Origin: Escherichia phage Turkey3
DNA: 64,000 nt
Sequence record: PQ471515.1
Reading direction: 5' to 3' (one strand)
The notes beneath the pieces were generated by a model. It saw nothing but the letters and a program-made list of their open reading frames with translations, made no database searches and was not told where the DNA came from. Both the position numbers and the translations under genes were made by a program. This document shows positions 6,666 to 7,240 of the stretch, in pieces (the first letter of the stretch is position 1; every line of letters begins with the position of its first letter).

Positions 6666-7079
6666 TTGGAGTTTACCTTATTAATTACAGTAGAGATTAA
6701 GATGCAAATAAAATATAATGAATTTTGTATAGGGACATGGATGTACACGGGTGAGTTGATTACGTGTTGTAATTTGTACAAAGGTGATTTAAACTACACA
6801 AGGGGCAAGGTTATAAAGTTCTGGAATTCACAATTTTATTTAATGGATCTTGGTACTGGATTTAGTTGTAAAGCAACCGATATGCTGGACTATACCTTAA
6901 TGGATGATGCTGCACTATTTCAGGAGTCATTAGTATTTGACAAGAAGTACATCTGTACATTAGAAGAGATTGTTGAAATCCAGCGTAGAATTAAATGCAT
7001 TCACAGGGAATGTATAGATAAATGGTGTAAAACTGGTGAAACTAATTTTAGTAATCATTTCAATCTAGGGGAAGAGTGA
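6666..7079 (+). CDS. FQ-S array paralog (FDKKY subfamily)
   Basis: TTG start gives MEFTLLITVE, aligning with MEFDFLISVH of 7608 paralog; motif DDAALFQESLVFDKKY; alternative ATG at 6702. Confidence 0.5.
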   Translation: MEFTLLITVEIKMQIKYNEFCIGTWMYTGELITCCNLYKGDLNYTRGKVIKFWNSQFYLMDLGTGFSCKATDMLDYTLMDDAALFQESLVFDKKYICTLEEIVEIQRRIKCIHRECIDKWCKTGETNFSNHFNLGEE

Positions 7080-7240
7080 TGGAATTTGATTTTGTAATAT
7101 CAGTACATTCTTTTAAGAACAGTTTTCAGTACTTTTGTAATTTAAACAAAGGTGATTTGATTATGGATACAGATACAGAGGCTGTATACAGTTCTAATAT
7201 TCTGTACAAATTCAGTACTAATCTGAAGGAGATTTTATGA
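7079..7240 (+). pseudogene. truncated FQ-S paralog remnant (N-terminal 27 aa homologous to 7608 gene, then divergent, 53 aa)
   Basis: MEFDFVISVHSFKNSFQYFCNLNKGDL matches N-terminus of 7608-7964; lacks FQ-S C-terminal motif; ATGA overlaps both neighbours. Confidence 0.45.

Follow-up and report, generated by a model that had tools for sequence, protein, structure and literature searches.

The short ORF and its neighbors

The window analyzed here is a stretch of 64,000 nucleotides from Escherichia phage Turkey3 (sequence record PQ471515.1), and coordinates refer to it unless another genome is named. It belongs to an Asteriusvirus-type E. coli jumbo phage, is AT-rich (G+C content 31-38%) and begins with about 26 kb of small plus-strand genes in a head-to-tail array. 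Our subject is a 53-codon open reading frame (ORF) in this array at 7079-7240, hereafter the short ORF, which is a two-parent chimera made by the insertion of the neighboring gene at 7237-7608. The region around it is 99% identical to Escherichia phage fEgEco12, its closest relative, and 87-96% identical to other Asteriusvirus jumbo phages (121Q, PBECO4, phAPEC6). The features of the locus are listed below; A4_364 and A4_365 are genes of the related phage A4, and empty-site genomes are those that lack the insert.

6702-7079, plus strand: upstream array gene, 125 amino acids, PHROG 15629; its 3' end provides the short ORF with its ribosome-binding context, GGGGAAGAG (7068-7076)
7077-7161, plus strand: direct-repeat copy 1, comprising a stop/start overlap and the first 83 nt of a 7608-type gene; encodes the beta1-beta2 hairpin and the CNLNKGDL motif
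7079-7240, plus strand: chimeric junction ORF, 53 codons and a stop, with a 7608-type head and an A4_364-like tail
7237-7608, plus strand: cargo gene, 123 amino acids, PHROG 13866, ortholog of A4_365 (93% amino acid identity), inserted along with the tail
7606-7690, plus strand: direct-repeat copy 2, the head of the intact target gene
7608-7964, plus strand: intact target gene (the 7608 gene), 118 amino acids, PHROG 15629, directly after the 6702-7079 gene in empty-site genomes

A preliminary description had taken the short ORF for a truncated paralog with the N-terminus of the 7608 gene, and both the 53-codon ORF and the match are real. The first 83 nt of the ORF (7079-7161) are identical to 7608-7690 at 78 positions, with five mismatches at ORF nucleotides 16, 31, 36, 40 and 47. 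A repeat search returned them as part of an 85-nt direct repeat (7077-7161 and 7606-7690; 94% identity, 529 nt spacing). A degenerate pattern of the 83 nt finds exactly two sites, the heads at 7079 and 7608, with none expected from 100 shuffles, so that the nucleotide identity with the 7608 gene is genuine and beyond chance. At the protein level 23 of 28 residues are identical (E=5e-17). The DNA alignment with 7608-7964 that had been proposed places the breakpoint after nucleotide 83: the similarity has a sharp end there, and none that is significant was found past it.

The head contains one module of the family only. The short ORF matches the PHROG 15629 profile at positions 1-39 of 121 (E=4.3e-9), and this part includes the N-terminal beta-hairpin with its C-N-L-x-K-G-D motif. 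Strands beta3 to beta5 and the (E/D)xLFQxS(L/T)V helix (model residues 33-74) are missing from the alignment. Nor does the short ORF have the C-terminal long helix and the last strand (residues 83-112), to which it shows only a weak YKF resemblance (E=0.017). The FQ-S motif was thus rightly reported as missing: the (E/D)xLFQxS core does not occur in the short ORF, with no profile match beyond position 39.

The tail comes from a longer array gene

In phage A4, the homolog of window 7154-7240 is the 3' end of the 192-amino-acid gene A4_364. This gene is followed by A4_365, the 93%-identical ortholog of the 7237-7608 gene, through the same ATGA overlap, and the DNA homology runs from 1201 to 1722 of the A4 segment L011 at 92.5-94.8% identity. 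The tail and its source comprise the following features.

7162-7240, plus strand: tail, the last 26 codons and stop of an A4_364-like array gene of about 192 amino acids, in its native frame
7166-7177, plus strand: two tandem copies of GATACA; a third copy is present in a metagenomic 55-amino-acid variant (6 nt more, in frame)
7226-7231, plus strand: Shine-Dalgarno sequence AAGGAG of gene 7237, inside the tail and followed by the native junction of A4_364 with A4_365, where the two overlap by ATGA (7237-7240)
13308-13910 and 13916-14275 (13308-14275), plus strand: positional counterparts of the donor genes A4_364 and A4_365, with 26% and 31% amino acid identity in colinear arrays

In phage 121Q, whose version of the ORF is longer, residues 24-74 of gp366 are 78% identical to residues 142-192 of A4_364 over 51 amino acids (E=1e-25). 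A4_364 is a genuine full-length array gene, since it aligns end to end with window ORF 13308-13910, occupies the colinear position and belongs to a cluster of 15 sequences (192-202 amino acids, on contigs up to about 359 kb) that is related to PHROG 33500. Because the A4 array is colinear with that of the window, A4_364 to A4_367 are strongly diverged positional counterparts of window 13308-15144; the idea that they form a paralogous block located elsewhere was dropped for the same reason. The native context of the tail is therefore a different, longer paralog, with its donor locus about 6.2 kb downstream along the array. The N-terminal 140 or so residues of the A4_364 cluster, up to its FQxD motif, are not in the short ORF, and homology starts at residue 142. 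Of the C-terminal 50 or so residues, the 121Q form keeps all 49-51 and the window form keeps 26.

Two other readings of the tail were rejected. An internal deletion, leaving a 7608-type head joined to its own C-terminus, was suggested by the sequence YKFS against YKFN, where the BLASTP match has E=0.017 as against 78% identity to the A4_364 tail. The sequence EFQNS in the 74-amino-acid 121Q form looked like the FQ-S motif of the family; in the full-length alignment of A4_364 with 13308 it sits about 20 residues past the true motif (AFQQD/MFTND), which lies just upstream of the joint.

These results bear directly on the first option of the preliminary description, a tandem 7608-type duplicate that was cut short and is now decaying, whether through point divergence, a frameshift or a premature stop. 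The 94% identity of the head to the neighboring gene, the missing family core and a weak second BLASTP segment (SSNILYKFSTNLKE with SINQEYKFNIGIPE, E=0.017) could be read that way. However, past nucleotide 83 it is the 3' end of A4_364, and no 7608-type gene, to which the DNA is 92-95% identical; A4_364 is a paralog of unrelated length in another PHROG; the boundary is a sharp 8-nt microhomology joint; and the stop is the native one of the donor gene, not a premature one. We regard a decaying duplicate as very improbable. What survives of the earlier claim is that the first 27 codons duplicate the 7608 head, that the core is missing, and that the window form has been eroded, having lost 63 nt that the forms in 121Q and A4 retain. 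The short ORF does not derive from a 7608-type gene by truncation or divergence, for it continues past nucleotide 83 as the in-frame 3' end of a different, longer array gene.

Joints and the 63-nt deletion

Both joints of the insert are visible in the sequences as microhomologies, and a later deletion has left its own mark in the tail.

7154-7161, plus strand: joint 1, 8-nt microhomology GATTTGAT; GGT GAT TTG ATG in the 7608-type head and CAG GAT TTG ATT in A4_364, in the same frame
7195-7198, plus strand: TAAT, scar of a 63-nt in-frame deletion, whose product is present in the window, phAPEC6 and other 53-codon forms
7606-7612, plus strand: joint 2, 7-nt microhomology TGATGGA where stop and start overlap, shared by the A4_365/A4_366 and the 6702/7608-type junctions

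At joint 1 the 7608-type head reads ...AAAGGTGATTTGAT|GCAC, A4_364 reads ...CAACAGGATTTGAT|TATGGAT, and the short ORF reads ...AAAGGTGATTTGAT|TATGGAT; the A4 homology begins here, at L011:1201. At joint 2 the sequence is GAGTACTGATGGA|TTTAG in A4, GAAGAGTGATGGA|ATTTG at the empty-site junction and GAGTACTGATGGA|ATTTG in the window. The two sides of a sharp microhomology boundary thus have different parents, as is expected of a junction ORF, and both the empty site (21 records) and the intact donor context (A4 and 14 further cluster members) exist in relatives. The tryptic peptide of the short ORF that spans the junction is GDLIMDTDTEAVYSSNILYK.

phAPEC6 shares the 53-codon ORF with seven further phages; in 121Q the ORF is longer by 63 nt and has 74 codons. 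The 63 nt are present both in the native gene A4_364 and in the chimeric gene 366 of 121Q, and are bordered by imperfect 15-nt repeats, T[C/G]TAAT[G/A]TTCTGT[G/A]CAA.

The short ORF is most probably a junction, or scar, ORF left by an ectopic microhomology-mediated insertion within the Asteriusvirus paralog array. The inserted segment consisted of the last 150 nt of an A4_364-like gene and the whole of the following, A4_365-like gene. It was joined into the head of a 7608-type gene through GATTTGAT after target nucleotide 83 and through TGATGGA at the target start codon. The target was thus left at nucleotide 83 and re-entered 83 nt farther upstream, which duplicated its first 83 nt. The outcome is an intact target gene downstream and an in-frame head-plus-tail fusion ORF upstream, which ends at the donor gene's own stop and overlaps the start of the cargo gene. 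A later deletion of 63 nt between the short repeats converted the 74-codon form, as in 121Q, to the 53-codon form. The original event may have been a template switch or an illegitimate recombination in a mixed infection.

The same account covers the overlaps with the neighboring genes. ATGA coupling had been described on both sides; it holds downstream (ATGA, 7237-7240), whereas the upstream junction is TGATG, in which the stop at 7077-7079 and the start at 7079-7081 overlap by 1 nt. Both overlaps are native gene junctions of the two parents and therefore give no evidence that the short ORF itself is maintained.

Distribution among related phages

The segment 7000-7700 matches 35 phage records. 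The insert is present in 11 of them (10 phages), and 21 (20 phages), including fEgEco12, have the empty site, with the 6702-type gene followed directly by the 7608-type gene. A4 has the donor arrangement, and JNE01 and Turkey5 differ further. Filled and empty sites can be paired in three backgrounds with flanks at least 99% identical: the window and fEgEco12, slurp01 and UB, and phAPEC6-G17 and SD-2_S15. An assembly or annotation artefact, in the form of a mis-join at the repeat, is hardly conceivable: the structure is flanked by 85-nt repeats, where assemblers can err, but these are shorter than typical reads, and the same arrangement recurs with allelic variation in 10 independently sequenced phages and in metagenomic contigs.

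The insert has moved. Its 448 specific nucleotides show no mismatch between the window and phAPEC6, G17, SHEFM2K, CRJP21 and Sharanji, while the flanks of the window are 86% (left) and 90% (right) identical to those of the same five phages. Single nucleotide polymorphisms (SNPs) in the window are of the fEgEco12 type up to 7125, of the phAPEC6 type from 7133 across the insert to 7654, and again of the fEgEco12 type from 7688, so that both switches (7125-7133 and 7654-7688) fall inside the head repeats. Because the insert is identical while the flanks have diverged by 10-14%, and because the SNPs switch in the repeats, we conclude that the cassette has crossed between lineages recently, with both exchange points in the head repeats. 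There are also signs of loss. The empty alleles of SD-2_S15 and PBECO4 are hybrids of copy 1 and copy 2, with the copy-1 SNPs at nucleotides 31 and 36 and the copy-2 A at nucleotide 81, and the empty allele of UB is of the copy-2 type throughout; both kinds fit deletions between the repeats, as expected.

The cassette may thus now spread and be lost through homologous recombination in the 85-nt repeats, and two routes can be envisaged. A 529-bp circle could be excised and re-integrated by one crossover, or a break could be repaired with its two broken ends pairing with different repeat copies of the donor. Either route would reproduce the window exactly: a single crossover at head nucleotides 48-80 between the circle and the gene at the empty site would leave copy 1 of the recipient type and copy 2 of the donor type 5' of the crossover point, with recipient-type sequence again from 7688, and break repair would yield the same result. 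It is possible, if on balance doubtful, that the insertion made its own mobility handles, so that the cassette of tail and gene 7237 pops out as a 529-bp circle and, in a mixed infection, re-integrates by one crossover in any 7608-type head. If true, the chimeric ORF would be the obligatory 'attachment-site' scar of a coding-sequence-based form of gene spreading, similar to the repeat-mediated shuffling of T4-type phages discussed below, in a jumbo-phage paralog array of more than 40 members.

Two records show irregularities of their own. In UE-S1 (L016 409-1137) the 6702-type and 7608-type genes are annotated, and translate, as one in-frame fusion of 242 amino acids (...NLGERVMEFDF...), owing to one extra A before the TGATG junction; this fusion may be real or a homopolymer sequencing error. 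The GenBank record of Sharanji (L010, end 350079) was opened inside the short ORF, with the match beginning at window 7115; the two parts of the ORF consequently lie at opposite ends of the record and carry no annotation.

Translation and possible function

The short ORF is predicted from its sequence to be translated, because its initiation region is the same as that of a real gene. The 20 nt before its start are identical in the window and fEgEco12, and its first 83 nt are identical to the head of the full-length gene in CMSTMSU and differ by 1 nt from that of fEgEco12. The 53-amino-acid product is probably a by-product without a function of its own; at most, translation of the short ORF passes ribosomes on to gene 7237.

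A confident AlphaFold model of the 7608 protein (predicted local distance difference test [pLDDT] 87, predicted template modeling score [pTM] 0.83) shows a six-stranded sheet packed by two helices, of which the head supplies only strands beta1 (5-12) and beta2 (15-21). A single-sequence AlphaFold2 prediction for the short ORF consists of two helices at low confidence (pLDDT 69.7, pTM 0.39) and disagrees with the strands of the 7608 model. In addition, the head alleles of 121Q and CRJP21 are degenerate, with TVKGAPQYL in place of [ST]FK[HN][ST][YFH]QYF. This alters F12 and F19, neither of which varies among the full-length genes examined, and adds a proline in strand 2. Among 34 records the TVKGAPQYL head was confined to the short ORFs of 121Q and CRJP21 and was absent from every full-length gene. 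The other alleles have cleaner heads, which can be accounted for if the 5' part of copy 1 is taken anew from a functional recipient gene at each transfer.

It is conceivable that the short ORF encodes a selected micro-protein that uses the N-terminal hairpin, either to cap or bind 7608-type paralogs by beta-strand addition or as a decoy for a factor that recognizes the head. The ORF is intact in every allele with length changes in frame only, has inherited the initiation signals of a real gene and rides on a cassette that recently spread across lineages. However, near-identical sister phages (fEgEco12, UB, SD-2_S15) do without it, the 121Q and CRJP21 heads have five non-conservative changes including the strand-2 proline, 21 tail residues are dispensable, no confident fold is predicted and helices appear where the full-length protein has strands, and the cargo gene 7237 explains the spread of the cassette equally well. 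A micro-protein therefore appears improbable to us.

Somewhat more plausible, though still unlikely, is a relay acting in cis, in which the peptide is irrelevant and selection acts on translation up to the ATGA, because this brings ribosomes to gene 7237 or opens up its ribosome-binding site within a tightly coupled operon. Such a relay would fit the overlaps on both sides (TGATG at 7077-7081, ATGA at 7237-7240) and the fact that the frame is kept at the joint, across the 63-nt deletion and in the 6-nt variant. It would also fit a scan of 6702-8672 for promoters and terminators, which gave 14 promoter-like sites against 14.7 expected and no terminators, that is, nothing above chance. On the other side, gene 7237 has a strong Shine-Dalgarno sequence of its own (AAGGAG, 5 nt upstream of its start), both overlaps were simply inherited from parental junctions, and three events in frame carry little statistical weight (about 1 in 27 at best), the 6-nt slip being in frame by construction.

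Several points weigh against the short ORF being a scar without function, or limit what can be said of its history. All seven known alleles (53, 55 and 74 amino acids) are open, and their three length changes are all in frame; selection to keep translation running as far as the ATGA overlap, or selection on the peptide itself, could account for this. No frame disruption or premature stop of the pseudogene type was found in the seven alleles, and the ORF stops at the donor's native stop. The ratio of nonsynonymous to synonymous polymorphism is 0.40 in the tail and 0.45 in the neighboring gene, from tiny counts and with a full-length gene as one of the compared lineages. We found nothing on this ORF in the virion proteomics paper on phAPEC6. 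The direction and number of gains and losses are inferred from about 16 loci and not from a whole-genome phylogeny, and the founding event may have taken place between genomes or within an ancestral genome.

Relation to known recombination systems

The closest described phenomenon to the spread of the cassette is the modular shuffling of hyperplastic regions in T4-type phages via promoter(early) stem-loop (PeSL) repeats, with mini-circles (Arbiol et al. 2010, PMC2839356; Comeau et al. 2014, PMC4122927). In both cases a small accessory gene lies between short direct repeats, is present or absent in near-identical phages and has its exchange points in the repeats; excision would yield a small circle (529 bp here) that re-integrates by one crossover, and the SNPs of the two heads in the window fit this. 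Unlike PeSL repeats, the 85-nt repeats of this locus are coding sequence from the 5' end of a gene and were made by the insertion itself. They also differ from the promoter/stem-loop cassettes in that no promoter-like or terminator-like signal rises above chance, and the circles are proposed.

The founding event itself is one of the illegitimate joints at microhomologies that, as a general class, give rise to phage mosaicism. Mosaic phage genomes acquire novel joints by illegitimate or homeologous recombination (for experimental context see Martinsohn et al. 2008, PMC2327257), and here too unrelated contexts are joined at 8 nt and 7 nt of microhomology, with a boundary inside a gene and a chimeric ORF as the result. 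Unlike such joints in general, both parents come from one paralog superfamily in the same array, the joint in coding sequence keeps the frame, and the duplication of 83 nt saves the target gene.

Insertional duplication is known from template switching of the fork stalling and template switching (FoSTeS) or microhomology-mediated break-induced replication (MMBIR) type, and short-repeat deletions and tandem duplications from the rII region of T4. The insertion with its target duplication bounded by microhomologies, and the later 63-nt deletion between imperfect 15-nt repeats, resemble these; unlike FoSTeS/MMBIR, the mechanism proposed here is deduced from end products alone.

Among the PHROG 15629, 13866 and 33500 paralogs of Rak2-like jumbo phages, the head of the short ORF matches 15629 and its tail the 33500-related A4_364 cluster. 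Unlike members of PHROG 15629 and 33500, it has neither core and no (S/T)EExFFQxS motif; it is a fragment of each and a member of neither. It is annotated as a 'hypothetical protein' in at least seven Asteriusvirus records. A short protein of this kind, with only the N-terminal module of its neighbor, can thus be a recombination scar and not a family member, and tight stop/start overlaps can come from parental genes and are not evidence of function. The event is of an ordinary kind, unusually well resolved, and reveals no new biological system. Its value is as a base-pair-resolved case of rearrangement in an accessory-gene array of jumbo phages. Sequenced relatives preserve the donor and the empty site, as well as the initial 74-codon product, its eroded 53-codon form and the products of excision.

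Other features of the array

An iterative hidden Markov model search seeded with the four genes beside the short ORF gathered 41 ORFs, from 164 to 38064, which have an (S/T)EExFFQxS-type motif in common. Ten proteins searched against Pfam gave no match above the curated cut-offs, leaving the array genes without a Pfam family. The PHROGs of array genes are all of unknown function: 15629 (7608 type), 13866 (gene 7237), 33500 (13308) and 9317 (8856). Searches of BFVD matched only uncharacterized proteins of Rak2-like jumbo phages, a search of 6300-8000 against Rfam gave no match, and the minus-strand ORF at 7126-7302 matched no family. In the literature we found nothing on this gene family or on the expression of phAPEC6 gp444-447.

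The sole sizeable non-coding gap near the short ORF is at 6505-6701. In it a run of nine G precedes A7T4 (6532-6553), and a promoter-like site lies at 6691-6719 (10 of 12 matches); no terminator was called. The gap could be the promoter region of the operon. Upstream, the adjacent related genes at 1051-1362 and 1359-1709 both start with MKYKMLYTL... and both contain SEEEFFQMQ; they look like a recent tandem duplication in the array. The ortholog of window 6702-7079 in phAPEC6, gp447c (L003 2206-2583), is annotated as 'amidohydrolase 3', which is probably a mis-annotation, since the window gene, an array paralog of PHROG 15629, finds no support for it in Pfam.

Finally, the arrays of the window (13308-16917) and of phage A4 (L020 7646-11276) are colinear with very uneven divergence. 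A4_355 and A4_356 are 91-97% identical in amino acid sequence to window 8856-9763, while A4_364 to A4_371 are 25-39% identical to their counterparts, which suggests that part of the array has undergone allele replacement or evolved very fast.
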